Below, one piece after another: positions 3,914 to 49,174 of a DNA stretch of 64,000 bases. Each line of letters opens with the position of its first letter. The first letter of the stretch is position 1. Source of the DNA: Actinomycetes bacterium (GTDB lineage: Bacteria > Actinomycetota > Actinomycetes > S36-B12); NCBI GenBank assembly GCA_024641635.1, contig JAHECS010000004.1, positions 92,826 through 156,825 on the forward strand, written 5' to 3'. Under the pieces are notes generated by a model. It had not been told where the DNA came from. It saw only the letters and a list, made by a program, of their open reading frames with translations, and did no database searches. The translations under genes were made by a program, and so were the position numbers.

Positions 3914-4070
3914 GGGTCCATCCTTCCAGCCCGGTCGCGAGCACCCCGCCGAGCCCTCCTCGGCCCGGATTGGACCGGCCCGATGCGGCCAACGTAGACT
4001 GCCCCTCCGCGGAAGTAGGTGGGCGCAAGCCTGCCCTCCCGTCGACGGTGCCGCCCAACCACGGCTCCGA

Positions 4071-4143
4071 AGGGTCGTAGCTCAACTGGTAGAGCACCGG
4101 TCTCCAAAACCGGCGGTTGGGGGTTCAAGTCCCTCCGGCCCTG
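4071..4143 (+). tRNA. tRNA-Trp (anticodon CCA)
   Basis: Acceptor agggtcg/cggccct, D arm gctc-aactggta-gagc, anticodon arm ccggt-ctCCAaa-accgg, T arm ggggg-ttcaagt-ccctc; conserved position upstream of secE. Confidence 0.9.
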
Positions 4144-4180
4144 CGAACGGACGAAGAAGGACGAAGGAGAGTAGGACGGC

Positions 4181-4438
4181 ATGACAGACACCGGTGCCCT
4201 GTCCGACCGCGGGTCGGAAGGCCGTGGCCGCAAGGACCAGGGCCAGGGCAACGTGTTCTCGCGTCTTGCCCTGTTCATCCGGCAGGTCGTGGCCGAGCTC
4301 CGCAAGGTCATCTGGCCGACCCGCAAGGAGCTCATCGCCTACACCACCGTCGTCGTGTTCTTTGTCCTGATCATGGCCGGGATCATCGCCGGCTTCGACT
4401 ATGTCTTCACCAGGGGAGTGCTGTTCATCTTCGGATGA
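4181..4438 (+). CDS. secE: preprotein translocase subunit SecE
   Basis: 85 aa; basic N-terminus, conserved [16 protein letters not shown] and a single C-terminal TM helix; SD ggagag upstream. Confidence 0.9.
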
Positions 4439-4484
4439 CGCAGCCTTCCGCTTCCCCACTCACGACCCGAGGAGATTGACCACC

Positions 4485-5378
4485 GTGTCCGACCAGGACC
4501 TCACGACCCCCACGACCGATCCCTTCGCCACGGCTCCTGCCGACGTCGAGGCCGTCGTGGACGCCGTCGACGACTCGACCGTCGAGGCCGAGGAGATCGC
4601 CGAGGTGTCGGAGGAGCTCGCCGAGGCCGAGGTTGTCGTGGAGGCGGAGGAGCTGGCCGACGCGGCGGAGGAGCTGGCCGACGTGGTCGAGGAGCTCGCC
4701 GAGGCCGAGGTTGTCGTCGCGGCGGAGGAGATCGCAGAAGCCGCTGAGGCCGAGGAGGAGGAGGACGAGGACCCGGTCGCTGCCTTCCGCGAGCAGATGC
4801 GCATCGCGCCCGGTGACTGGTACGTCATCCACTCCTACGCGGGCTATGAGAACAAGGTCAAGGGCAACATCGAGACCCGCATCACCACCATGAACATGGA
4901 GGACTACATCTTCCAGGTCGAGGTGCCGATGGAGGAGGTCACGGAGATCAAGGGCGGCGTCCGCAAGCTCGTCCGCCGCAACAAGTTCCCCGGGTACGTC
5001 CTGGTTCGGATGGATCTCACCGACGAGTCGTGGGGCGCCATCCGGCACACCCCCGGCGTCACCGGCTTCGTCGGGCACGGCCACCAGCCCGCGCCGCTGT
5101 CCCTGGACGAGGTCGTCGGCATCCTGGCCCCCACGCCGGAGAAGAAGGCCGCCGCCGCCGGTGCCGCTGCCTCCTCCGGCGGAGCCGCCCCTGCCGAGCA
5201 GGTCGAGGTCGACTTCGCCGTCGGCGACTCGGTCACGGTCGTGGACGGCCCCTTCGCCACCCTCCACGCCACCGTCTCGGAGATCAACATCGAGGCGCAG
5301 AAGGTCACCGGCCTGGTCGAGATCTTCGGTCGCGAGACCCCCGTCGAGCTGGCCTTCAACCAGATCGTCAAGAACTAG
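4485..5378 (+). CDS. nusG: transcription termination/antitermination factor NusG with acidic repeat N-terminal extension
   Basis: GTG at 4485 after gaggag SD (the track start 4401 would overlap secE). NGN domain [15 protein letters not shown] and [21 protein letters not shown]; about 110 aa of Glu/Ala-rich N-terminus. Confidence 0.9.
4611..4717 (+). repeat. duplicated 29-mer within the nusG N-terminal extension
   Basis: gaggagctcgccgaggccgaggttgtcgt occurs at 4611-4639 and 4689-4717 (78-bp offset, in frame; [10 protein letters not shown] twice). Confidence 0.9.
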
Positions 5379-5434
5379 CACGACCCCTGGGGGCGCCGTC
5401 CCCGGGGCAACGACAACGAAGGACCCGACACACC

Positions 5435-5866
5435 ATGGCACCGAAGAAGAAGGTCGCCGGCCTGATCAAGTTGCAGATCCAGGCGGGCGCGGCAAACCCG
5501 GCGCCGCCCGTTGGCCCCGCTCTGGGTCAGCATGGCGTCAACATCATGGAGTTCTGCAAGGCCTACAACGCGGCCACGGAGAACCAGCGCGGCAACGTGA
5601 TCCCGGTTGAGATCACGGTCTACGAGGACCGGTCGTTCGACTTCACCCTGAAGACGCCGCCGGCCTCGCGACTCATCCTCAAGGCCGCGGGCCTCGAGAA
5701 GGGGTCCGGCGAGCCGCACAAGGTCAAGGCAGGGTCGATCACCAAGGCCCAGGTCCGCGAGATCGCCGAGACCAAGATGCCCGACCTCAATGCCAACGAC
5801 GTCGACGCCGCGATGAAGATCATCGAGGGCACCGCACGCCAGATGGGCATCACGGTCAAGGCCTAG
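5435..5866 (+). CDS. rplK: 50S ribosomal protein L11 (uL11)
   Basis: ATG at 5435; [45 protein letters not shown]; the longer track ORF from 5030 overlaps nusG. Confidence 0.97.
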
Positions 5867-5970
5867 CATCACCCCGGCCGCTCGCGGCCGATCAGCACGA
5901 CACCTGAAGAGTCCACCACCAGTGGGAGAGCCAGCGCGGCTCACACACCACGCCCTGCGAAGGAGCAGAG

Positions 5971-6684
5971 ATGAAGCGCAGCAAGGCCTACCGGGCCGCA
6001 GCAGAGAAGATCGACCCCGCAGCGCTGTACGCGCCGCTGTCGGCGGTCCGCCTGGTCAAGGAGACCACGGCCACCAAGTTCGACCCGACTGTCGAGGTCT
6101 CCATGCGCCTCGGCGTCGACCCCCGCAAGGCCGACCAGATGGTGCGCGGCACCGTCAACCTTCCGCACGGCACCGGCAAGACCGCACGGGTCCTGGTCTT
6201 CGCCAACGGCGAGAAGGCTGATGAGGCCCGCGCTGCGGGTGCCGACTTCGTCGGCGGCGACGACATGATCGACAAGGTCAAGGGCGGCTGGACCGACTTC
6301 GACGCGGCCGTGGCCACGCCGGACCTCATGGGCAAGGTGGGCACGCTGGGCAAGGTGCTCGGCCCGCGCGGTCTCATGCCGAACCCCAAGACCGGCACGG
6401 TCACGATGGACGTCGCCAAGGCGGTCAACGAGATCAAGGGCGGCAAGATCGAGTTCCGTGTCGACAAGCACTCGAACCTGCAGTTCCCGATCGGGAAGGC
6501 ATCGTTCACCGAGCAGGCGCTCGTGGAGAACTACGCTGCCGCCCTCGACGAGATCATGCGCCTCAAGCCGAGCGCCGCAAAGGGCCGCTACGTGCGCAAG
6601 GCGACGATGTCGTCGACGATGGGTCCGGGCATCCCTGTCGACCCGAACCGGGTGAAGGACCTCCTGACGGAGGACGACGCGTAG
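5971..6684 (+). CDS. rplA: 50S ribosomal protein L1 (uL1)
   Basis: 237 aa; [15 protein letters not shown]...[11 protein letters not shown]...[15 protein letters not shown]. Confidence 0.97.
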
Positions 6685-6701
6685 GCCTCAGCACCGCACG
6701 T

Positions 6702-6738
6702 CACGATGGCCCGGCACCTGTGGTGCCGGGCCATCGTG
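6702..6738 (+). terminator. intrinsic terminator-like hairpin after rplA
   Basis: cacgatggcccggcac / gtgccgggccatcgtg: 16-bp perfect stem, 5-nt loop, followed by tt. Confidence 0.65.
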
Positions 6739-6836
6739 TTCGACAATTGCCTCGTTCTCTTGCATGGCGCTCGTGACGGCTACAGACTGTCGCTCGTCCA
6801 GCAGGGTCGGGTCGGCCCGGCCGTCGGGAAAGGGGT

Positions 6837-7625
6837 GTGCGCGTGGCCGAGACGAACGCGGGCGACCTTCTCGAACTGGATGACATCAAGGTCAAGCTGA
6901 GCGGACTCCAGATCCTCGACGGGGTGACCATCCGAGTCCCTCGCGGCCTCGTCACCGGGCTCATCGGGCCCAATGGCGCCGGGAAGACCACCGTCTTCAA
7001 CGTCATCAGCGGCTTCGTGAAGCAGGACTCTGGCTCGGTCACCTACGAGGGCAGGAAGCTGCGCCACATCAAGTCGCACCACCTGGCGAAGATGGGCATC
7101 TCCCGCACGCTGCAGGGCGTCGGGCTGTTCGCCAGTCTCACAGCCCTCGAGAACGTCATGCAGGGCGGGTCGTCACGGCTGAGGTCGGGGATCCTGTCCG
7201 AGTCGTTCGCCATGCCGTGGACCGACGTCGAGCAGGAGCGTCTGCGCGTCGATGCGCTGGCGGCCCTCGACCGGCTGGGCATCGCCGACCAGGCCGAACG
7301 CCTCCCCAGCGAACTCCCGTACCCGATCCAGAAGCGTGTCGCCCTTGCCCGAGCGCTCATGCCGAACCCGAAGCTGCTGCTGCTCGACGAGCCGGCGGGC
7401 GGTGTGAGCGCTGGGGACATGGCTGAGCTCTCGTCGCTCATCCGCAGCTGGGTGCCTGAGCGATCCGTCCTGCTGGTCGAGCACCACATGGAACTGGTCA
7501 TGGCGGTCTGCGACCTCATCTGGGTCCTCGACGCGGGGAAGGTCATCGCGTCGGGCACACCGGACGAGGTACGAAACGACCCGGCCGTGCTGGCGGCCTA
7601 TCTCGGCGAGGAGGGGGCGGCCTGA
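6837..7625 (+). CDS. livG: branched-chain amino acid-type ABC transporter ATP-binding protein (LivG-like)
   Basis: 262 aa; Walker [13 protein letters not shown]-type signature region, Walker B LLLLDEPAGG, C-terminal DPAVLAAYLGE tail; start could also be GTG 6843. Confidence 0.85.
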   Translation: MRVAETNAGDLLELDDIKVKLSGLQILDGVTIRVPRGLVTGLIGPNGAGKTTVFNVISGFVKQDSGSVTYEGRKLRHIKSHHLAKMGISRTLQGVGLFASLTALENVMQGGSSRLRSGILSESFAMPWTDVEQERLRVDALAALDRLGIADQAERLPSELPYPIQKRVALARALMPNPKLLLLDEPAGGVSAGDMAELSSLIRSWVPERSVLLVEHHMELVMAVCDLIWVLDAGKVIASGTPDEVRNDPAVLAAYLGEEGAA

Positions 7626-8329
7626 TGCTGTCGATCTCCGGCCTCTCCGTCACGTACGGGCCCGTCCACGCGCTCACCGATGTCTCCCTGGAGGTTCCTC
7701 GCGGGGAGGTCACGGCGGTCATCGGTGCGAACGGTGCGGGCAAGTCGACGCTGATGCGGACCCTCGCCGGCCTCGTCAAGCCCGTAGCCGGCACCGCGAC
7801 CCTGGACGGCAACTCCATCCTCGGGCACAAGCCGGAGGACGTCGTCCGGATGGGCGTGGCGCTGGTCCCGGAGGGTCGATCGACGGTTCCGGAGCTGACC
7901 GTGGACGAGAACCTCCGGCTGGGCGGGATGTGGCGCAGCAAGTTCGAGAGGGCGGGACTCAACGCGGAGTTCTACGACATGTTCCCCGCCCTGGCCCAGC
8001 GGCGGAACAGCCGGGCGGACACCCTCAGCGGCGGGGAGCGACAGCAGCTCGCCATCGGCCGTGCGCTCATGTGCGACCCCCAGTGCCTGCTCCTCGACGA
8101 GCCGTCGCTGGGCCTGGCGCCACTGATCGTGACCCAGATCCTCGAGCTCGTGAACCGGCTGGCGGTAGAGGTCAACATCGCCGTGCTCCTCGTGGAGCAG
8201 AACGCGGTCACGGCCCTCCGCGTCGCGCACACCGGGGTCGTCCTGAACCTGGGCCAGGTGGTGATGTCCGGCAGTGCCGCGGATATCGCCTCCCACGAGG
8301 AGCTGCGCCATGCGTATCTCGGGTACTAG
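7625..8329 (+). CDS. livF: branched-chain amino acid-type ABC transporter ATP-binding protein (LivF-like)
   Basis: 234 aa; GANGAGKST, LSGGERQQLAIGRAL, LLLDEPSLGLAP; ATG overlaps the livG stop (TGATG). Confidence 0.85.
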   Translation: MLSISGLSVTYGPVHALTDVSLEVPRGEVTAVIGANGAGKSTLMRTLAGLVKPVAGTATLDGNSILGHKPEDVVRMGVALVPEGRSTVPELTVDENLRLGGMWRSKFERAGLNAEFYDMFPALAQRRNSRADTLSGGERQQLAIGRALMCDPQCLLLDEPSLGLAPLIVTQILELVNRLAVEVNIAVLLVEQNAVTALRVAHTGVVLNLGQVVMSGSAADIASHEELRHAYLGY

Positions 8330-8338
8330 GAGCCGGTC

Positions 8339-9217
8339 ATGACGCAGCTCATCGACTACCTCCTGGGCGGACTCGGCTCCGGCATGATCATCGCGCTCAT
8401 GGCGCTGGCGCTCGTCCTGACGTGGCGTGCCACGCGGGTGGTGAACTTCGCCCAGGTGGGGCAGGCAATGTTCACCACGTTCGTGGCCCTGACGATCCAG
8501 ACCCTGACCGGCTCGTGGCTGGTGGCCCTCGTCGCCGCGATCATCGCGGGAGCCCTGCTGGGCGTCATCGTCCAGTACCTCGTGCTGCGTCCCGTGAGGC
8601 GCATGGACACCTCCGGGGCCATCATCGCGACCTTCGGCGTGCTCATCGCGCTGCAGGCGGCGGCGGGGATGATCTGGGGCGGCGACAGCCAGGCGTACCC
8701 GCAGCCCTTCGGGAACACCGCCCTCACCGTGTTCGGCCGGGAGTGGCCGGTGTCCGCCTATGACCTCGTGGTCGTCGGGTTCGGGGTGGTGCTCGTCGTG
8801 GGGCTCACGCTGCTCTTCACCCGGACCGACCTCGGACTCGCGATGAGGGCGACGGCCTTCAATCCGGAGGTGGCCCGACTGTCCGGGGTGCGGGTGAGCC
8901 GCACGCTGACGATCGGCTGGGCGCTGGCGGGCATCGTCGGTGCCGTCGCCGGAGTCCTGGTGGCCCCGACCTCCGCGATCTCGCCGAACAGCTTCGACAT
9001 CCTGCTGGTGTTCGCCTTCACGGCGGCGGTCATCGGCGGGTTGGACAGCCTCGTCGGCGCTGTCTCGGTCGGCATCTTCACCGGCCTGGTCCTGTCGGTT
9101 GTGTCCGGCTACAGCGACTCGAGCAATGCCCCCGTGGTGGCACTCTTCCTGCTGGCCCTCAACCTCGCCCTCAAGCCGGAGGGCATTTTCGGCCACAGCA
9201 AGGCCCGAGCGGTCTAG
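8339..9217 (+). CDS. livH: branched-chain amino acid-type ABC transporter permease (LivH-like)
   Basis: 292 aa polytopic membrane protein with the BPD_transp_2-like pattern (NFAQVGQAMFTTF..., GGLDSLVGAV). Confidence 0.8.
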   Translation: MTQLIDYLLGGLGSGMIIALMALALVLTWRATRVVNFAQVGQAMFTTFVALTIQTLTGSWLVALVAAIIAGALLGVIVQYLVLRPVRRMDTSGAIIATFGVLIALQAAAGMIWGGDSQAYPQPFGNTALTVFGREWPVSAYDLVVVGFGVVLVVGLTLLFTRTDLGLAMRATAFNPEVARLSGVRVSRTLTIGWALAGIVGAVAGVLVAPTSAISPNSFDILLVFAFTAAVIGGLDSLVGAVSVGIFTGLVLSVVSGYSDSSNAPVVALFLLALNLALKPEGIFGHSKARAV

Positions 9218-9226
9218 GGGGGACGC

Positions 9227-10645
9227 ATGCGTGATCTCATGCGCCTCCCTGGCGCTCGGCTGGTGCTGCATGCGGCGATCGCCATCGGCGCCTGGCTCGC
9301 CCTCACCTGGGTGAATGGCGCCGTCGACCCGTTGATGAACTACTACATCGCCCTCGTTGCCATGTACGCGACGGCCATGTTCGGCATGGTGATCCTCGTC
9401 GGCCTGTCCGGGCAGGTGTCCCTCGGCAACGGCGCCCTCATGGCCGTGGGCGGCTACGTCTTCGCCCTGACCACCCTGAACTGGCAGACCATCCCCTTCA
9501 CGGTGATCCCGATGAACGGCATCTGGGCGATGCTGTTCGCCGCTGTTGGCGGAGTGCTCTTCGGCCTGTTGATCGGCGTCCTCGGTGCTCGACTGAGCGG
9601 CCCCTACCTCGCCGGACTGACGCTGGGCATCGCGGTGGGCATCCCAGCCATCGCGAATCGCTTCCCCGAGCTCCTGGGGGGCGAGACCGGTCTTCAGCTG
9701 ACCGTGCCGTACCCGGATGGCGGCTACGCGCCCGTCGTCGAGGAGGTCGACCAGCAGTTCGTCGAGGAGCTCCCGACCGGTCAGGACGAGCTGCCCACTG
9801 GCCAGGACCCGCTTGCGTCCGACGGTTCGGGTGACCTGCTGACGTCGGACAACTTCCCGTCGGGGGATGCGTCGGTGGCGCCGGACGATCTGCTGACGTC
9901 GGACAACTTCCCGTCGGGGGATGCGTCGGTGGCGCCGGACGATCTGCTGACGTCGGACAACTTCCCGTCGGGGGATGCGTCGGTGGCGCCGGACGACCTG
10001 CTGACGTCGGACAACTTCCCCTCCGCGACCCCGGATGCGTCCGCGTTGCCGCTCGACCCCGGATCCACGGACGTGAGCGGGGTCGACGTGAGCGGGGTCG
10101 ACGTCGGCTTCGTGCTCGAGCGCTGGCAGGCGTCCCTCGCCGTCGCCGTCGCCTGCATCGTCGGCTTCCTCGCACTGAACCTCGTGCGCGGGCGCCAGGG
10201 GCGGGCTTGGCGGGCCGTGCGCGACGATCCGGTGGCGGCCGCAGTATCGGGCATCTCGCCCGCACGCTCGAAGGTGTCCGCATTCGTCGTGAGCAGCCTG
10301 TTCGCCGCCCTGGCCGGGGCCGTGTTCGCCCAGATCCTGGCCTACGTCGGTCCGGGAGCGTTCGGGCTCGGTCTGTCCCTCTCCCTCCTCGTCGGCATCG
10401 TCCTGGGCGGGCGGTCGTCCCTGGTCGGCGCCGTCATCGGGGCCGTCCTCCTCGTCTGGCTCCCGGAGTTCGTGCTGTCCCTGTCGAATGACCGTGGCTG
10501 GGAGGAGCAGGTGACGAACAACGCGCCCAACCTCATCTACGGCCTGCTGGTCGTCCTCGTCGTCCTCGTGGCTCCGGGCGGGATCGTGGGAACCCTGCAA
10601 GCGCTTGTAGGCAAGGTTGTTCGACGAGCCCGCAAGGCCGGGTGA
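9227..10645 (+). CDS. livM: branched-chain amino acid-type ABC transporter permease (LivM-like) with a large acidic repeat insertion
   Basis: 472 aa; LivM-like TM core (GQVSLGNGALMAVGGY..., GRAWRAVRDDPVAAAVSGI, SSLFAALAGAV) interrupted at about residues 160-295 by a D/P/S-rich low-complexity segment containing perfect tandem repeats. Confidence 0.8.
   Translation: MRDLMRLPGARLVLHAAIAIGAWLALTWVNGAVDPLMNYYIALVAMYATAMFGMVILVGLSGQVSLGNGALMAVGGYVFALTTLNWQTIPFTVIPMNGIWAMLFAAVGGVLFGLLIGVLGARLSGPYLAGLTLGIAVGIPAIANRFPELLGGETGLQLTVPYPDGGYAPVVEEVDQQFVEELPTGQDELPTGQDPLASDGSGDLLTSDNFPSGDASVAPDDLLTSDNFPSGDASVAPDDLLTSDNFPSGDASVAPDDLLTSDNFPSATPDASALPLDPGSTDVSGVDVSGVDVGFVLERWQASLAVAVACIVGFLALNLVRGRQGRAWRAVRDDPVAAAVSGISPARSKVSAFVVSSLFAALAGAVFAQILAYVGPGAFGLGLSLSLLVGIVLGGRSSLVGAVIGAVLLVWLPEFVLSLSNDRGWEEQVTNNAPNLIYGLLVVLVVLVAPGGIVGTLQALVGKVVRRARKAG
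9767..9808 (+). repeat. 2 x 21-bp imperfect tandem repeat (ELPTGQD x2) in livM
   Basis: gagctcccgaccggtcaggac / gagctgcccactggccaggac, adjacent and in frame. Confidence 0.85.
9836..10020 (+). repeat. about 3.4 copies of a 54-bp tandem repeat inside livM
   Basis: Unit ctgctgacgtcggacaacttcccgtcgggggatgcgtcggtggcgccggacgat at 9836, 9890 and 9944 (one t>c change) plus a partial copy from 9998; encodes LLTSDNFPSGDASVAPDD. Confidence 0.95.
10070..10099 (+). repeat. 2 x 15-bp perfect tandem repeat (DVSGV x2) in livM
   Basis: gacgtgagcggggtc at 10070-10084 and 10085-10099. Confidence 0.95.
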
Positions 10646-10655
10646 CCCCAATGTG

Positions 10656-10684
10656 TTGCAACCCCGGCTCGCGCTGACTAGCGT
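10656..10684 (+). promoter_or_regulatory. candidate internal promoter for the substrate-binding protein gene
   Basis: ttgcaa (10656-10661), 17-nt spacer, tagcgt (10679-10684); followed by 9-bp hairpin gcggcatgt/acatgccgc at 10713-10735. Confidence 0.3.
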
Positions 10685-10804
10685 CCGCACCACCTGCGTC
10701 GCAAGGTCGTGCGCGGCATGTCGTATACATGCCGCTGAGTCGGCGTCCTTGGGGCGCGGGGGCGATCGGCGTCGCCAGCACGCCACCTTGGGAGAGGCAG
10801 ATCT

Positions 10805-12091
10805 GTGAGCAAAGTCCTTGTGACCCGCGTGGTCACGTTCGGAGTCGTGACCGGCCTCGCGCTGGCCACCGCAGCACCGTCGGGCGCGGCGGTCGCTACC
10901 GCTGACCCGGGGGTCAGCTCGAACCAGATAGTCATCGGCACGACGACACCCCTGACCGGCCCTGCCTCTCCGGGCTACAAGGATGTCGCCCCGGCCGCAC
11001 AGGCCTACTTCAACTACGTGAACGCGAACGGCGGAATCAACGGCCGGAAGATCAAGTACGTCGTCAAGGACGACCAGTACAACCCGGCGAAGGCCAAGAG
11101 CGCGACCAGCGAGCTCATCCTCCGCGACAAGGTCTTCACCATCTTCGGGGCGCTCGGCACCCCCACGCACTCCGCCGTGGTGGCCGACATCAACCGGCGA
11201 GGCATCCCGGATGTGTTCGTCAACACCGGCTCGTCGAACTTCGACAACCCGCGCAAGTACCCGACGACGTTCCCGTACTTCCCGTCCTACGTCGTCGAGG
11301 CCAAGGTCATGGCCTCGTACATCCAGGGCGACTCCGCCCTCAACGCCAAGAAGCGCTGCCTCTTCTACCAGGACGGCGAGTTCGGCGACAACGCCGAGAA
11401 GGGCTTCAACGCGGCCGGCATGAAGTTCGCCACGACCGTCTCCTACTTCTCCGGGCAGCAGGTCGCCCCGTTCACCTCGCAGATCACCAAGATGAAGTCC
11501 GAGGGCTGCGATCTCGTCGTCTTCTTCGGAGTGACCTCCGCGACCGCCCAGATGCTCGGCACCTCGGCCAAGGCAGCCTTCCGGCCGACCTGGATGATCA
11601 CGTCCGTCGGGTCCGACCCCACGGTGCTCTCCGGCACGCTCGGCGCGGCCACGAACCAGCTGCTCAACGGCATCTACACGCCGAGCTTCCTCGCTCCGAT
11701 CCAGGACACGAAGAACCCCTACGTGAGCCAGATGAAGGTCATCGCCGACAAGAACCGCCTGCCGTGGAACTTCTACACCTACTACGGCATCAACACGGCG
11801 TACGTGCTGGCGCAGGCGCTCAAGGCGGCGGGTCCGAACCTGACCCGCAAGGGGCTGATCAACGCCCTGCAGACGAGGGCGTCCAGCTTCCGCTCGGCGG
11901 CGGTCGTGCCCATGGTGATCAACTCCCGCTCGCATCAGGGCCTCACGGGCTACTACATGGGCAGGTACAACACCTCGGGTCAGGTGCTGCGACTCACCAG
12001 CTACATCCTGGTGGCCAACAGCGCCTCGACCGGCAAGGCCAAGAAGACCACCTTCCGCCCGGGTGCCCCCACCCGCAAGCTCCTGCCGTAG
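10805..12091 (+). CDS. ABC transporter substrate-binding protein, branched-chain amino acid/amide family (LivK-like), secreted
   Basis: 428 aa; signal peptide VVTGLALATAAPSGAAVATA; Peripla_BP_6-like core (IVIGTTTPLTGPASPGYKD..., NGGINGRKIKYVVKDDQYNPAKA). Confidence 0.8.
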   Translation: MSKVLVTRVVTFGVVTGLALATAAPSGAAVATADPGVSSNQIVIGTTTPLTGPASPGYKDVAPAAQAYFNYVNANGGINGRKIKYVVKDDQYNPAKAKSATSELILRDKVFTIFGALGTPTHSAVVADINRRGIPDVFVNTGSSNFDNPRKYPTTFPYFPSYVVEAKVMASYIQGDSALNAKKRCLFYQDGEFGDNAEKGFNAAGMKFATTVSYFSGQQVAPFTSQITKMKSEGCDLVVFFGVTSATAQMLGTSAKAAFRPTWMITSVGSDPTVLSGTLGAATNQLLNGIYTPSFLAPIQDTKNPYVSQMKVIADKNRLPWNFYTYYGINTAYVLAQALKAAGPNLTRKGLINALQTRASSFRSAAVVPMVINSRSHQGLTGYYMGRYNTSGQVLRLTSYILVANSASTGKAKKTTFRPGAPTRKLLP

Positions 12092-13819
12092 ATGAGGACT
12101 GACATGAAGACAACGTTCACCCGCCGCGTCGTCGCGGCGACAGCGGCGGCAGGGCTCCTGCTCGTCGGAGTCCCGGCCCTGGCGCCGGCAAACGCCGCGT
12201 CGTCCGCCTGCGGTCTCGGCAAGACCTGCGAGGGCTCGCTCGCGGGCCCTCTAGGGGCTTCGCCCTACACGATCCAGATGCCTAAGAAGTTCAACGGCAC
12301 CGTGCTCGTGTACTCGCACGGATACCGCATCGGAACCCCGATACCAGCGGCGCTGGCCGTCCCCCTCGGGTTCGACAAGGATCCGGCCTACGACCAGATC
12401 TCCTTCCCGCTCTTCAAGGAGTCGCTCGGCTCGGACGTGGCCTACATCGGCTCGAACAGGGCCGACGTCGGACCGAGTGACGTGGTCGAGAAGAACCTCC
12501 TGGCGAAGGGGTATGCGCTCGCCGGCACCGGGTACGCCCGACAGGGCTGGGCTGCGGCCGAGGGGCTCGAGGCCAACCAGAACCTGCTCAAGGCGATCGA
12601 CAAGGGTGCCATCAAGGGCGTGAAGAAGACGCTGCTGTGGGGCAGTTCCCTCGGCGGCCTCATCGCGGCCACCACCGCGGAGCGCACACCGGGCTCTGTC
12701 GACGGACTGCTGCCGATGTGCGGCGTGCTGGCCGGCCCCGAGCAGGCCTTCGGCAGCGCGATGTCGGTGCTGTACTCGTGGAAGTCGCTGATCGCGCCGA
12801 GCCTCAAGGTGGCCAACTACAGCGGCTACACCGAGGCGCTGACGGATCTCGGTACCGTCCTGACGACCCTCCAGAAGGTCTCCGGAGACACATCGCTCGT
12901 GTCGAGCGTCGGCTACCCCGTCGCCCAGGCGAACCTGCTGGCCGGCCTCCTGGGCGGCCTGCCGACGAAGTCCCAGGCGTTCGATGGTCAGACCCTGAAT
13001 CCCTTCGCGGATTCCCAAGGGACCGCGGCGGCCATCGCCGGCGGATACTCGTTCGTCTCGGCTGGGCAGAGCTCGGCGGCGGCCATGCTGCAGAACGTCG
13101 GCGGCGCGGCAGCGCTCGGCATCCTGGGGCGTTACGAGCTCGAGCAGCGCATCCGGCTCACGGCGGGCATCCTCCCGGCGCAGAACGCCAACTTCAACAG
13201 CAACGTCAAGGTGTCCTACTCCAGGCTGCTCACACAGGAGCAGCGCGGAGAGTTCGGCGACACGCTGAACGCGTCGACGGTCATGCCGAACCTGATGAAC
13301 GCGATGCTGGCGACCCTCGACTCGACCAAGGGCAGCACCTCGGCGCGCTTCGTGGCCAGCCCCAAGGCCGTCAAGGCGGTTCGCGCTCTCCCGGCGCCCA
13401 CGGGCAAGTACGTGGCCCCGACGCTGATGCTGTCGACCCAGTACGACCCGATCGTCCCTGCCGGCAACACGCAGTGGTACTTCGACCGCGTGTCGGCCTC
13501 GGCGAAGAAGAAGGGTGCGTCCTCGTCGGTCGCCCAGTACTACACCGAGCCGCCGCTGAAGGGCTGGGAGGTCTACGACGAGGGTGCCAAGGGGCCGAAT
13601 GCCGCCGCCAGCACCGCCGCCGCGACCTCGGGCGTCGGCCACTGCAACTTCGCGATCAAGAACGGCGTGCAGATCACGAACGCGGTGAAGGGCCTCGAGC
13701 TCCTCGTCAAGGGCGCCTCTCCCAAGGTGGTCAACCGACTCATGTGGAAGACCCCGGGCGTCATCGCCGACGAGTTCTTCGAGCCGGAGCGGCTGAAGCG
13801 ACCTGATCTGGCCAAGTAG
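12092..13819 (+). CDS. secreted alpha/beta-fold hydrolase of unknown specificity (putative Ser-Asp-His triad)
   Basis: 575 aa; signal peptide ending ALAPANA-AS; nucleophile elbow LWGSSLGG, later QYDPIVP and GVGHCNF in Ser-Asp-His order with a long insert between Ser and Asp. ATG abuts the upstream stop (TAGATG); ATG 12104 is an alternative start. Confidence 0.55.
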   Translation: MRTDMKTTFTRRVVAATAAAGLLLVGVPALAPANAASSACGLGKTCEGSLAGPLGASPYTIQMPKKFNGTVLVYSHGYRIGTPIPAALAVPLGFDKDPAYDQISFPLFKESLGSDVAYIGSNRADVGPSDVVEKNLLAKGYALAGTGYARQGWAAAEGLEANQNLLKAIDKGAIKGVKKTLLWGSSLGGLIAATTAERTPGSVDGLLPMCGVLAGPEQAFGSAMSVLYSWKSLIAPSLKVANYSGYTEALTDLGTVLTTLQKVSGDTSLVSSVGYPVAQANLLAGLLGGLPTKSQAFDGQTLNPFADSQGTAAAIAGGYSFVSAGQSSAAAMLQNVGGAAALGILGRYELEQRIRLTAGILPAQNANFNSNVKVSYSRLLTQEQRGEFGDTLNASTVMPNLMNAMLATLDSTKGSTSARFVASPKAVKAVRALPAPTGKYVAPTLMLSTQYDPIVPAGNTQWYFDRVSASAKKKGASSSVAQYYTEPPLKGWEVYDEGAKGPNAAASTAAATSGVGHCNFAIKNGVQITNAVKGLELLVKGASPKVVNRLMWKTPGVIADEFFEPERLKRPDLAK

Positions 13820-13827
13820 CCGGATGA

Positions 13828-13860
13828 TCGGGGGCGGGGCCGATTTGGTCCCGCCCCCGA
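13828..13860 (+). terminator. terminator-like hairpin after the hydrolase gene
   Basis: tcgggggcggggcc / ggtcccgcccccga: 14-bp stem (one G-U), loop gattt. Confidence 0.65.
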
Positions 13861-14062
13861 ACCTCCCGTACGCTTCCCCCTACCGAAGACCGCTGGTCGC
13901 CGGCAGCAGGAGACTGCAGCCGGTCGAAGGCCCCGCGAAGGCGGGCGGCCCGCGCAGGTGAACGAGCAAGGCCTCTGGTGGGCTCATGAGCCCACCGTCG
14001 CCCCGCCCCGTGCGCCTGCGCCGGGGCGTTCTGCATTCTCGGGGCGACATGAAAGGAGCCTC
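13861..14062 (+). promoter_or_regulatory. rplJ 5' leader (possible L10-L12 autoregulatory leader)
   Basis: About 200 nt untranslated and structured: gtgggctc-at-gagcccac hairpin (13978-13995), cgccccg/cggggcg stem (14000-14028), then SD gaaaggag. Homology to known L10 leaders not tested. Confidence 0.35.
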
Positions 14063-14782
14063 ATGGCCCGGCCGAACAAGGCGAGCACGATCGCCGAGCT
14101 CGCCGACCACTTCCGCGAGTCCAACGCGGCAGTGCTCACCGAGTACCGAGGTCTGACCGTCGCGCAGCTGAAGACGCTGCGTCGCTCGCTCGGATCCACG
14201 GTCACGTACGCGGTCGTCAAGAACACCTTGACCAAGATCGCCGCAAAGGACGCCGGGGTAACCGGCGTCGACGATCTCCTCGCTGGTCCGAGCGCCATCG
14301 CCTTCGTCAAGGGTGATGCGGTCGAGGCGGCCAAGGCGATCAAGACCTTCGCCAAGGAGAACCCCGCCCTCGTCATCAAGGGCGGCTACATGGACGGAAA
14401 GACCCTCAGCGCCGCTGACGTCCAGAAGATCGCCGACCTTGAGTCGCGCGAGGTGCTCCTGTCCAAGCTCGCCGGGGCCATGAAGGCGAAGCAGTCGCAG
14501 GCAGCCGCCCTGTTCGCTGCTCCGCTCTCGAAGGCCGCGCGCGCCCTGGGCGCCCTGCAGACCAAGCTCGAGGCCGATCCGTCGGCCGCGGCTGCTGCTC
14601 CCGCCGACGCTCCGGCAGACGCCGTGGCCGAGGAGACCCCCGCCGACGCTCCGGCAGACGCCGTGGCCGAGGAGACCCCCGCCGAGGCACCCGCCGAGGC
14701 ACCCGTCGAGGCTGCGGCCGAGGCGACCACCGAAGAGACCGCCGAGACGACCGATGTCGTCGAGGAGACCACCGAGGGCTGA
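14063..14782 (+). CDS. rplJ: 50S ribosomal protein L10 (uL10) with acidic Ala/Pro/Glu-rich C-terminal repeat tail
   Basis: ATG 14063 after gaaaggag; [44 protein letters not shown]. 239 aa, of which about 60 C-terminal residues are low-complexity acidic repeats. Confidence 0.95.
14603..14704 (+). repeat. 2 x 39-bp perfect tandem repeat plus 2 x 12-bp repeat in the rplJ 3' end
   Basis: gccgacgctccggcagacgccgtggccgaggagaccccc at 14603-14641 and 14642-14680; gccgaggcaccc at 14681-14692 and 14693-14704. Confidence 0.9.
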
Positions 14783-14826
14783 GGCCCACCCGGCCCTCGG
14801 CCGGATCTACCTGAAAGGACGCCATC

Positions 14827-15216
14827 ATGGCGAAGCTGAGCACCGACGAGCTGCTGGACGCGTTCAAGGAGATGACGCTGCTGGAGCTCTCTGATTTCGT
14901 GAAGATGTTCGAGGAGACCTTCGACGTCACCGCGGCGGCCCCTGTGGCCGTTGCCGCTGCTGCCCCCGCGGGCGGCGCCGGTGGTGGCGAGGCCGCTGCC
15001 GAGCAGGACGAGTTCGACGTCGTCCTCGAGGCTGCCGGCGACAACAAGATCCCGGTCATCAAGGAGGTGCGCGCGCTCACCAGCCTGGGCCTCAAGGAGG
15101 CCAAGGATCTGGTCGAGGCCGCCCCCAAGGCGGTCCTGGAGAAGGTCAACAAGGAGACTGCCGAGAAGGCCAAGGAGGCCCTCGAGGGCGCCGGCGCCAA
15201 GGTCACCCTCAAGTAG
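14827..15216 (+). CDS. rplL: 50S ribosomal protein L7/L12 (bL12)
   Basis: 129 aa; [34 protein letters not shown]...[24 protein letters not shown]. Confidence 0.97.
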
Positions 15217-15235
15217 TCCACCGCGCTCACGCGCA

Positions 15236-15277
15236 ACGAAGGAGGGCCCACCCCGATCGGGGTGGGCCCTCCTTCGT
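15236..15277. terminator. bidirectional terminator hairpin between rplL and the convergent MFS gene
   Basis: acgaaggagggcccacccc-gatc-ggggtgggccctccttcgt: 19-bp perfect stem. Confidence 0.8.
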
Positions 15278-15289
15278 CGCTTGACGCCG

Positions 15290-16909
15290 CTACTCGACGA
15301 GCATCGGCGGATGGTCCTTGTCGTGATCCGAGCGCAGGTGGACGTCCTTCAGCATGAGGGCGAACACGAACCCGACCACGAGGATGGGGACGGCCGCGAG
15401 GAACACGGTGCCCAGGGCGCCGGTGAACGCCTCGAGCACCAACGGCCGGACGCTGTCCGGCAGGGCAGCGATATTGGACATGGCACTCGTCATGCCGTCG
15501 ATCTGGGCGCCGGACGCCGATCCGGCGGGCAGCGTGGCCATCAGCTCGGCGGTGAGCCGGGAGGTGAGGATGGCTCCGAAGAGCGCCGTTCCGATCGTCC
15601 CGCCCACGGACCGGAAGAAGGTCGATCCGCTGGTGGCCACCCCGACATCACGCGGATTGACGGAGTTCTGCACGGCGATGATGAGCACCTGCATGACGTT
15701 GCCGATCCCCACGCCGAGGATGAACAGGTACACGGCCAGCTGCCAGTACGGCGTCTGCACCTCGATCGTCGACAGCAGGAACATTCCGATCGCGGCCAGT
15801 GCGGTGCCGATGATCGGGAAGATCTTGTATCGACCGAGGTGGGAGATGAGGCGGCCCGACACGATCGAGGCGATCAGCAGGCCCGCCATCATGGGCAGCA
15901 GCTGCAGCCCGGCCTCGGTCGGCGACGATCCCTGGACCAGCTGCAGGAACAGCGGCATGAAGACGATGGCGCCGAACATCGCGAGCCCGACGATGAACCC
16001 GATGATGCTGGAGACGCCGAACACCTGGTTGCGGAACAGGCCCATCGGAACGATGGGCTCCGGGACGCGCAGCTGCCGTCGGACGAAGACGGCGAGCAGG
16101 GCAACCGTCAGGACTCCCATGCCGAGGATGGCGGGGGACAGCCAGTCGAAGCGCTGCCCGCCCCACTCGAAGATGAGCAGGAGTGCGCTCACGCCGGCCA
16201 CGAGGAGTGCGGCGCCCAGGTAGTCGACGACGTGGTTCACGCGTCGCTGGGGCACCTGGAGGACCAGGGTGATGACGACGAACGCCGCGATGCCGATCGG
16301 CAGGTTGATGTAGAAGATCCAGCGCCACGAGAGGCTGTCCACGAAGAACCCCCCGAGCAGCGGGCCGGCGACGCTGGCGATGGCGAACACCCCGCCGAAC
16401 AGTCCCGTGTACTTACCGCGGTCGCGCGGCGGGATGATGTCGGCGATGACGGCCATGACGAGAACCATGAGGCCACCGCCGCCCAGGCCCTGGATCCCTC
16501 GGGTGACGATGAGCATCCCCATGGACGTCGACGCGCCGGCAAGCAGCGAGCCGGCCAGGAAGATGACGATGGCCGCCTGCAGCATGATCTTTCGGCCGTA
16601 CAGGTCGGAGATCTTGCCCCAGATCGGGGTCGAGGCGGTGGACGCGAGCAGGTAGGCGGTGACGACCCACGACAGCTGCGCCAGTCCGTTGAGGTCGCTC
16701 GTGATCCGCGGCAGGGCCGTGGAGACGATGGTCTGGTCGAGGGCCGCCAGGAACATCGTGAGCATGAGCGCCGTCATGGTCAGGCCGAGTCGCCCGCCGT
16801 GGATCAGCTCATGGTCCGGAGCCCCCTCGGAGATGAGGGTCGCCTCGGGATCGGGAGTGTCCAGGGGATCGGGCTCGTCCACGCGGCTGGTGGTCGGCAG
16901 GTCGGTCAT
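15290..16909 (-). CDS. MFS transporter, DHA2 (EmrB/QacA-like, about 14 TM) drug/proton antiporter family
   Basis: 539 aa; [28 protein letters not shown], many TM helices; ATG overlaps the marR stop (ATGA on minus strand at 16906-16909). Confidence 0.8.
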
Positions 16910-48538: not shown

Positions 48539-48574
48539 CAGCTGCACCTACACGGAAAGCACTGAGGAGAAGCA

Positions 48575-49174
48575 ATGCCTACGCCAACCAAGGGTCCCCG
48601 TCTCGGCGGCGGGCCTGCACACGAGCGGCTCATGCTGGCGAACCTCGCCACGGCGCTGTTCGAGCATGGGCGCATCACGACGACCGAGGCCAAGGCCAAG
48701 CGCCTTCGCCCGCTGGCCGAGCGCCTGATCACCTTCGCCAAGCGTGGTGACCTGCACGCGCGCCGTCGCGTCATGACCGTGGTCAAGGACAAGTCCGTCG
48801 TGCATGTGCTGTTCACCGAGATCGGCCCGCAGTACGCGGGGCGCCCGGGCGGCTACACGCGCATCACCAAGATCGGTCCTCGCAAGGGCGACAACGCCCC
48901 CATGGCCGTCATCGAGCTCGTCGAGCCCATGGCGGAGCAGGTCGTCGCCGAGGCCACCGGCGCCACCAAGCGCGCGGCCAAGGAGAAGGCCGCTGCGGCT
49001 CCCGCTGCGGCTGCTGAGGTCGTGGCGGATTCACCGGAATCGGTCGAGACCGAGGTCGACGCGGTCGAGGAGTCGGTCGTCGAGTCCGAGGCCGACGACA
49101 GCGCCACTGAGGCCGCCGTCGTCGCCGAGGACGCGGCTGACGCCGATGCTGACGAGGCGAAGGACGAGTCCTGA
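48575..49174 (+). CDS. rplQ: 50S ribosomal protein L17 (bL17) with acidic C-terminal extension
   Basis: 199 aa; [37 protein letters not shown]; about 70-aa Ala/Glu/Asp-rich tail. Confidence 0.97.

Follow-up and report, generated by a model that had tools for sequence, protein, structure and literature searches.

What is a long, acidic and repetitive segment doing in the middle of a membrane permease whose relatives have next to nothing at the same site? The question is raised by a gene for a LivM-type permease of an ATP-binding cassette (ABC) importer, which lies in a stretch of 64,000 nucleotides (nt) from an Actinomycetes bacterium (GTDB lineage Bacteria; Actinomycetota; Actinomycetes; S36-B12), namely positions 92,826 to 156,825 of the forward strand of contig JAHECS010000004.1 in GenBank assembly GCA_024641635.1. 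We call this whole stretch the window and give all positions in its numbering. A preliminary description, made from the letters alone, had seen in this gene a LivM-type permease interrupted by an acidic, D/P/S/T-rich insertion of about 135 residues built from DNA tandem repeats. Comparison of the gene with its orthologs makes it quite probable that the insert is a functional array of short linear motifs, extracytoplasmic and disordered, which belongs to one LivM-type clade and whose copy number evolves by in-frame slippage or recombination.

Anatomy and predicted topology of the insert

The gene and its parts, each with the evidence by which it was delimited, are as follows.

9227..10645, + strand: livM-type permease gene, 472 amino acids (aa) plus stop codon (open reading frame; match to PF02653)
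9227..9724, + strand: N-terminal membrane core, aa 1-166 (hydropathy, charge counts, AlphaFold2 helices)
9725..10102, + strand: acidic insert, aa 167-292 (126 aa), delimited by alignment of the cores; predicted to be disordered and extracytoplasmic
9767..9808, + strand: 21-bp repeat in 2.0 copies, encoding ELPTGQD twice (Tandem Repeats Finder, 80% matches)
9833..9862, + strand: motif copy 1, DLLTSDNFPS, aa 203-212 (regular expression and translation; AlphaFold2 helical turn at 207-209)
9836..10020, + strand: 54-bp repeat in 3.4 copies, encoding LLTSDNFPSGDASVAPDD (Tandem Repeats Finder, 99% matches, score 363)
9887..9916, + strand: motif copy 2, DLLTSDNFPS (regular expression and translation)
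9941..9970, + strand: motif copy 3, DLLTSDNFPS (regular expression and translation)
9995..10024, + strand: motif copy 4, DLLTSDNFPS, followed by a diverged linker, ATPDASALP (regular expression and translation)
10070..10104, + strand: 15-bp repeat in 2.3 copies, encoding DVSGV DVSGV DV (Tandem Repeats Finder, 100% matches)
10103..10642, + strand: C-terminal membrane core, aa 293-472, with transmembrane helix (TM) 6 at 299-323 and later helices (Pfam, AlphaFold2)
10187..10255, + strand: basic EAA-like coupling loop RGRQGRAWRAVRDDPVAAAVSGI, aa 321-343 (alignment with the LivH loop; charge counts)

The loop that follows the GGETGL...PYPDGG motif is indeed expanded by an acidic segment, at 126 residues close enough to the length first estimated, which contains 23 Asp and 5 Glu with no Lys, Arg or His and thus has a net charge of -28. 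The three repeats of the preliminary description (21 bp twice, 54 bp 3.4 times with one substitution, and 15 bp) were all recovered by Tandem Repeats Finder and by direct reading, and all three arrays are in the livM reading frame. The three full 54-bp units differ at a single base (T to C at 9997) and the fourth diverges after 24 nt; at an offset of 54 the longest run of matches is 107 nt, and no such run exceeds 10 nt when the window is shuffled 20 times. Four differences, every one of them synonymous, separate the two 21-bp units, and the upstream motif ELPT[EG]Q that they encode is present in 2-4 copies in relatives. A reading of ELPTGQD as a sortase LPXTG signal was rejected: it has L-P-T-G without the X, orthologs show LPTEQ, LPTSQ or VPLEQ in its stead, and no anchor follows. 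A search of all six frames of the 64-kb window with the motif pattern finds matches in livM alone. The gene has the properties of a variable in-frame tandem-repeat locus, with near-identical units of 54, 21 and 15 bp whose copy number varies between alleles with identical cores.

On which side of the membrane this segment lies had been left open in the preliminary description. Hydropathy and charge counts place five predicted TM helices (10-32, 35-60, 65-85, 98-122 and 126-145) and a basic N-terminus (MRDLMRLPGAR) ahead of the insert, while TM6 leads into the basic EAA-like loop RGRQGRAWRAVRDDPVAAAVSGI, of which the stretch GRAWRAVRDDPVAAAVSGI aligns with GLAMRATAFNPEVARLSGV in the corresponding loop of the LivH paralog. 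The EAA loop of ABC importers is cytoplasmic and contacts the ATPase. Since a positively charged N-terminus followed by five helices, and a putatively cytoplasmic loop after the sixth, which orients TM6 from outside to inside, both put the insert outside the cell, it is predicted to be extracytoplasmic, between TM5 and TM6. An AlphaFold2 model built from an alignment of 56 sequences has a mean pLDDT (predicted local distance difference test) of 59, with values below 50 over residues 151-295, where the only secondary structure consists of 3-residue helical turns at motif copies 1-3. The insert is accordingly modeled as intrinsically disordered, as had been supposed.

The family assignment of the permease is likewise sustained. 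Its match to PF02653 (BPD_transp_2) scores 103.6 bits against a gathering cut-off of 26.8, and the gene is the fourth in a livG-livF-livH-livM-SBP-hydrolase operon (SBP, substrate-binding protein) that provides a second permease of the family, two ABC ATPases and an SBP of the Peripla_BP_6 type, in a gene order kept in related loci. The Pfam match is split in two by the insert and its second stretch (aa 296-445) resumes at profile position 135, extending to 268, so that the PF02653 profile has no counterpart of the insert. The strict LivM model NF008450 of NCBIfam is missed (96.5 bits against a cut-off of 366, in the C-terminal half only), as is the UrtC model TIGR03408 (71.2 bits against 296). 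With scores so far under these cut-offs the substrate is not assignable and the label "LivM-type" is the one that holds, with no claim to specificity for branched-chain amino acids. A protein identical to the window LivM is present in a public collection (P0001; L and P numbers are our handles for loci and proteins). The best of the related loci is L001, at 83% identity, and the N-terminal cores of the two LivM proteins are 84% identical.

Age of the insert and conservation of its motif

In each of the 120 best homologs of the window protein (65-100% identity) this site of LivM is occupied by about 81-168 inserted residues (a printout of 94-187 aa for these inserts includes 19 flanking core residues). 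A scan of one genome per species gave 80 loci from metagenome-assembled genomes (MAGs) of uncultured freshwater or estuarine Actinomycetes or Candidatus Nanopelagicales, and in the 79 of these in which both cores could be located the acidic insert is present without exception. Its length ranges from 43 to 171 aa and its net charge, negative throughout, from -9 to -74, over locus GC contents of 51-71% and core identities that fall to about 50%. In complete orthologous genes the reading frame is intact through every array and the insert is never lost. Outside this group the site is nearly empty: about 120 outgroup LivM representatives (at most 49% identity, mostly 330-390 aa), drawn from a HMMER search of 1.84 billion cluster representatives, have 0-14 residues there, which agrees with the earlier statement that the loop is short in canonical LivM proteins. 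In that search the family with the insert forms one full-length cluster plus fragments, after which scores fall from 565 to about 200 bits. Judged from these alignments, the insert is a synapomorphy of one LivM-type orthologous group. A search of 5.8 billion proteins with the insert alone, aimed at motif arrays in other families, returned a single match, a frameshifted livM fragment (P0121), and is a weak negative as the composition filter removed the query too.

Several of the MAG records appear to be mislabeled, with names such as "Bifidobacterium breve", "Rubrivirga sp.", "Gammaproteobacteria bacterium" and "Aquiluna sp." (L014, L015, L018, L021, L023, L036, L040, L042 and others), because their livM operons and synteny group them with Nanopelagicales-type actinobacteria. 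The charge of the insert also varies with the provenance given in the records. It is about -10 to -30 in lake members and densest in MAGs with estuarine or brackish names (bays, Caspian), reaching -74 or about 43% net acidic residues in a set of loci (L021-L028, L037, L040, L042, L074) with arrays of DDFLTEDDFLSE. To the extent that the sites can be read from MAG names, the denser charge may compensate for screening by salt.

Among close relatives the repeated motif reads D-[LM]-L-T-x-D-N-F-P-S, which generalizes to D-hydrophobic-L-[TS]-x-acidic-acidic-hydrophobic, with the copies parted by variable acidic or Pro/Ser/Ala linkers; the variants of distant members are DDMLTMDNFP, EDLLTEEDLLTE, DDFLTEDDFLSE, SDMLTPSDVTG, DDLLTVDDAQSGVA and EVLEFDQEE. 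The 79 inserts contain 225 instances of a relaxed pattern, [DE][LMFIV][LI][TS]x[DES], where composition-preserving shuffles predict 3.6. Copies per locus number 0-8, with at least one in 72 of the 79 loci and recognizable variants in the other seven. Going by this enrichment, the insert is a conserved short-motif array and not mere low complexity. The segment first described is thus acidic and disordered as stated; it is not generic in composition.

Within single genomes the DNA identity of motif units runs from 1.00 down to 0.56. At one end stand freshly homogenized arrays, in the window, L001, L002 and L016, with L007 contributing one near-identical pair of units; at the other are old arrays, in L004, L005, L008 and L009, in which the peptide core is still kept, and even arrays with 56-80% unit identity retain D-[LM]LT-x-DNFP-S. 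Over 56 distinct DNA units the Asp preceding the core is invariant though it lies outside the pattern by which units were selected, and the Ser that follows Pro is conserved at 86%, with codons of both the TCN and the AGY type. The Leu, Thr and Pro codons of the motif vary freely, and linker positions have entropies of 2-3 bits. Motif conservation through such codon turnover, the synonymous-only differences between the ELPTGQD units and the intact frames together show, by the signature they leave in the DNA, that the segment is translated and that its motif is under purifying selection. On the same comparative grounds the insert is old and clade-wide, and only the homogenized 54-bp units are recent; the proposal of a recent expansion therefore stands for these units and fails for the insert, which is ancient in all 79 loci.

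It could still be argued that a slippage-prone low-complexity insertion, devoid of function, has simply been tolerated at a permissive junction of two five-helix halves. The TM5/TM6 site is a plausible domain junction, the range of lengths is wide (43-171 aa), and acidic low-complexity extensions are present on L10, L17 and a NusG-like protein of the same genome. We nevertheless regard neutrality as improbable, given that the insert has been kept in every locus over the whole span of GC content and down to about 50% core identity, that its motif is conserved with synonymous codon turnover and that complete genes show neither loss nor frameshift, while all other LivM lineages sampled do without it. 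Another alternative is that the insert is a modification scaffold, in which the conserved Thr and Ser of the motif (D-LL-T-x-DNFP-S) would be modified after translation, by O-mannosylation of Thr/Ser near Pro for instance, with the glycan as the functional entity. The segment is Pro/Ala/Ser-rich and predicted to be exported, and actinobacterial O-mannosylation of the Pmt type targets Pro/Ala/Ser-rich exported regions. Distant members, however, exchange the P-S for acidic residues (EDDFLTEDDF) and keep the LT core only, and no glycosyltransferase is seen in the operon, which makes such a scaffold very unlikely.

While the motif is conserved, its number is not. Pairs of database proteins with 100% identical flanking cores (320 residues) differ in the length of the insert: 140 against 116 aa, or 3 against 2 units, in P0085 and P0107; 130 against 107 aa in P0063 and P0072; and 175 against 138 aa in P0057 and P0059. 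The length variation anticipated among close relatives is thereby borne out, and the orthologs have not just the large loop but repeat variability within it. Part of the variation between identical cores could be due to collapse of repeats in short-read assemblies. The 185-bp array is about as long as a short read, so that the copy number in the window depends on its assembly, and some differences among metagenomes could have the same cause. That the repeat units as such were falsely expanded or collapsed is nonetheless extremely unlikely: the architecture of 3-4 near-identical units recurs in independent assemblies, among them Mb-scale contigs and complete-chromosome MAGs (L001-L003, L007, L008 and L016) which we infer to be long-read, and the frame is always intact.

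Variation of this kind invites comparison with hypervariable surface segments; the insert would then be the exposed part of an abundant transporter, used as a receptor or shield, and pressure from phages or grazers would select changes in copy number for altered recognition. Copy number does differ between proteins that share 320 identical core residues, arrays have been re-homogenized independently in different genomes, in-frame tandem units are typical of variable surface proteins, and the placement of the operon in a ribosomal-protein cluster may imply high expression. We consider this explanation rather improbable all the same, as the motif core is strongly conserved instead of diversified, the number of copies and not any contact-like residue is what varies, and phage evidence of any kind is absent.

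Binding proteins and a candidate docking arm

The other genes of the operon bear on what the array might do.

6837-7625, + strand: livG-like ATPase (ABC_tran with a BCA_ABC_TP_C tail)
7625-8329, + strand: livF-like ATPase (open reading frame and Pfam)
8339-9217, + strand: livH-like permease, without insert (open reading frame and Pfam)
10805..12091, + strand: SBP of the Peripla_BP_6 family (Pfam, 176 bits) with a Sec-type signal peptide, no lipobox cysteine and an isoelectric point (pI) of 9.9
12092..13819, + strand: co-operonic secreted alpha/beta hydrolase (Pfam Hydrolase_4) with a signal peptide and a pI of 9.3

In 72 ingroup loci the SBP has a Sec-type signal peptide, as predicted from sequence, with an AxA site directly before ADPGV. 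A lipobox cysteine is lacking in 70 of the 72, and the two matches to the lipobox expression look spurious, being upstream of the start or inside the hydrophobic core. The mature SBP has a pI of 8.7-10.0 in 71 of these loci, and its net charge ranges from +4 to +27. Longer inserts go with more positive SBPs (rho 0.48, p = 6e-5), and so do more negative inserts (rho -0.31, p = 0.011), both values being uncorrected for phylogeny. The nearest LivM outgroup, here termed Class A, consists of Thermoleophilia-type soil bacteria (with names such as Solirubrobacteraceae and Baekduia) that share the livGFHM-SBP order. Their LivM has 0-10 residues at the site of the insert, and their SBP carries a lipobox (AACGSS) and a Ser/Gly-rich linker in 38 of 39 loci of the metagenome scan plus L083, with a pI mostly of 4.5-7.

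As the most likely function we tentatively propose that the insert is a multivalent arm by which the free, basic SBP is captured and docked. The SBP, exported with a predicted cleavable Sec signal peptide, without a lipid anchor and with a net positive charge, would diffuse away from a single-membrane cell if nothing held it. A long negative arm would attract it electrostatically, which would be effective in low-salt water, and specificity would come from a contact made by the hydrophobic core (LL...F) of each motif. One or several SBPs, and perhaps the basic secreted hydrolase too, would in this way be kept close to the translocator. The flexible tether, which in soil relatives is part of the SBP (lipid anchor and Ser/Gly linker), would have moved to the permease. 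The copy number of the motif probably changes by in-frame slippage or unequal recombination, and the three near-identical 54-bp units of the window are the trace of one such recent event. The proposal fits the data without being proven by them, the support being circumstantial, namely the predicted outside topology of the arm and the unanchored basic SBPs. More doubtful is a stricter version in which lipid anchoring has been replaced by a noncovalent, permease-borne tether, each motif docks one SBP and the number of copies sets the number of SBPs held.

The interest of such an arrangement is that SBP-dependent importers of cells without an outer membrane are usually assumed to rely on lipid anchoring, on a membrane helix or on covalent fusion for keeping the SBP at the cell. 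Judged by its sequence, the SBP of this clade lacks all three, and its permease carries, as a gain, a conserved acidic repeat arm at the predicted outer face. If the proposal is true, motif copy number would be a dial for the SBPs (perhaps also the hydrolase) held per transporter, differing between strains, and the combination of a motif array with electrostatics suited to low-salt water would be a new tethering principle in single-membrane cells. The clade is part of the Nanopelagicales-type actinobacteria, which are prominent in lakes. Even if there is no tether, the insert would be a clear case of a bacterial polytopic membrane protein that carries a functional, disordered array of motifs on its outer side, and its length could serve as a strain-level marker for populations of the clade.

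Several observations weigh against a docking arm. The most direct come from a second outgroup, Class B, comprising 15 lake-metagenome loci of 45-49% GC (L141, L146-L149, L151, L153-L157, L160-L163) whose hosts are probably acI-type actinobacteria. These have a livGFHM-SBP-hydrolase operon in which the LivM site has only 2-5 residues, and despite the lack of an insert their SBPs are unanchored and basic (pI 9.3-9.7), from which it follows that a free basic SBP does not require an acidic arm. A strict coupling of the two was accordingly rejected. Within the ingroup, the SBP of L045 has a pI of 6.4, and the correlations between insert and SBP charge are weak and derive from loci that are not phylogenetically independent. 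The proteins that freshwater microbes secrete show a general shift towards basic pI (PMC6706942), and the basic SBPs may reflect this shift with no need for a tether; set against the same trend, an extracellular segment with a charge of -28 runs counter to its habitat. Acidic low-complexity extensions are also found on cytoplasmic housekeeping proteins of the window genome (L10, L17-like and NusG-like), so that this genome appears prone to making such segments. Finally, searches of PDB by sequence and by profile found no relative of the permease, and a docking face could not be located.

If there is no protein partner at all, the insert might be a nonspecific polyanionic brush or antenna that holds anionic wall polymers away from the mouth of the transporter, serves to bind or buffer divalent cations, or enriches cationic solutes next to the transporter in dilute water. 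Net negative charge is the most universal trait over the 79 loci (-9 to -74), the window copy is devoid of basic residues, members with estuarine or brackish names are denser in charge (up to 43% excess of D/E) as would be expected against salt screening, and the outgroups with free basic SBPs cope without an insert. A brush leaves unexplained why a motif with hydrophobic residues (LLT...F/V) has been kept down to about 50% core identity in 225 copies against 3.6 expected, and why linkers vary freely alongside a fixed motif. We therefore hold it to be unlikely, though it ranks first among the alternatives to a docking arm.

The secreted hydrolase (575 aa, with a weak Hydrolase_4/S33 aminopeptidase match) starts at the base after the SBP stop codon and has no match in NCBIfam; it may release the substrate of the transporter outside the cell. 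Most loci encode it with a pI of about 9. It occurs in one derived ingroup clade and in the insert-less Class B loci, and an obligate partnership with the insert was rejected on account of 15 complete loci that have no hydrolase and keep the insert with its motif arrays. Position +7 of the motif is F/Y/L in all 45 motif-bearing loci with the hydrolase and V/A in all 12 without it; since the loci with the hydrolase form a single clade in a neighbor-joining tree, this match counts as one event and not as independent evidence. For every subunit, Class A and Class B lie at about the same distance from the ingroup. The Class B operon is at a different genomic site, with a tsaE-like gene downstream in L148.

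Known systems and the genomic setting

The permease is a variant of a known transporter type. With the canonical HAAT permeases LivM and UrtC (PF02653, TC 3.A.1.4), as in LivHMGF with LivJ/K of E. coli, it shares the Pfam family, the operon logic, the GGxxGL motif that precedes the loop and the EAA-like loop that follows TM6; it differs in having 126 residues where about 120 representative homologs have 0-14. The closest functional analog of the proposed docking arm, with no relation in sequence, is the P2 loop of MalF in the E. coli MalFGK2 transporter. MalF P2, a large loop in the periplasm, makes contact with the binding protein and retains it at the transporter. Both segments are extracytoplasmic, in our case by prediction from the positive-inside rule, the five TMs and the EAA-like loop. 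MalF P2, however, folds into a domain of about 180 residues and belongs to a type I (BPD_transp_1) permease from a bacterium with two membranes, whereas the present insert is not independently folded in the model (pLDDT below 50 over residues 151-295) and is predicted to be disordered, repetitive, polyanionic and variable in copy number, in a permease of different fold and a cell with a single membrane.

The problem of keeping an SBP near the translocator without an outer membrane is solved elsewhere by the covalent fusions of binding domains to the permease in OpuA and GlnPQ of Gram-positive bacteria and by lipoprotein SBPs with Ser/Gly linkers. Unlike these, the ingroup has neither fusion nor lipobox, its flexible element is on the permease, and the attachment would be noncovalent. 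With tandem-repeat surface proteins and contingency-type loci the insert has in common a unit length that is a multiple of three, near-identical units and a polymorphic copy number, but its repeats are inside a loop of a core polytopic transporter rather than an adhesin or antigen, and what changes is length and not the state of expression. Literature searches for LivM insertions or repeats, for cryo-electron microscopy of LivHM and for Nanopelagicales binding proteins found no description of the insert.

The liv operon is wedged between rplA and rplJ in an otherwise ultra-conserved ribosomal neighborhood, an unusual site for a transporter. The gene order in the window (4371-15213) is nusG-like, rplA, livG, livF, livH, livM, SBP, (hydrolase), rplJ, rplL, and it is kept in most of the related loci (L001-L080). 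Acidic extensions rich in Ala/Pro/Glu/Asp occur as a C-terminal tail of L10 (13958-14782), which contains a near-duplicate segment, as a C-terminal tail of the L17-like protein (48566-49171), and as an N-terminal region of the NusG-like protein (4371-5375). An Rfam scan of 4000-16000 found no L10 or L1 leader at the gathering threshold, and its sole match is a tRNA gene at 4071-4143, upstream of the nusG-like gene.

The livM and SBP genes are 159 nt apart (10646-10804), whereas elsewhere in the operon neighboring genes abut or overlap. A perfect 9-bp hairpin (about 10713-10735) is present in this gap, and three stop codons lie between the two genes; no consensus promoter or terminator was found in the gap, and its overall RNA fold is no better than that of shuffled sequences. 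An open reading frame of 1445 aa on the minus strand (7598-11935), antisense to livF, livH, livM and the SBP gene, was set aside as the usual spurious frame of high-GC DNA; the window has a GC content of 68%, and the sense genes have third-codon-position GC values (GC3) of 0.82-0.94.

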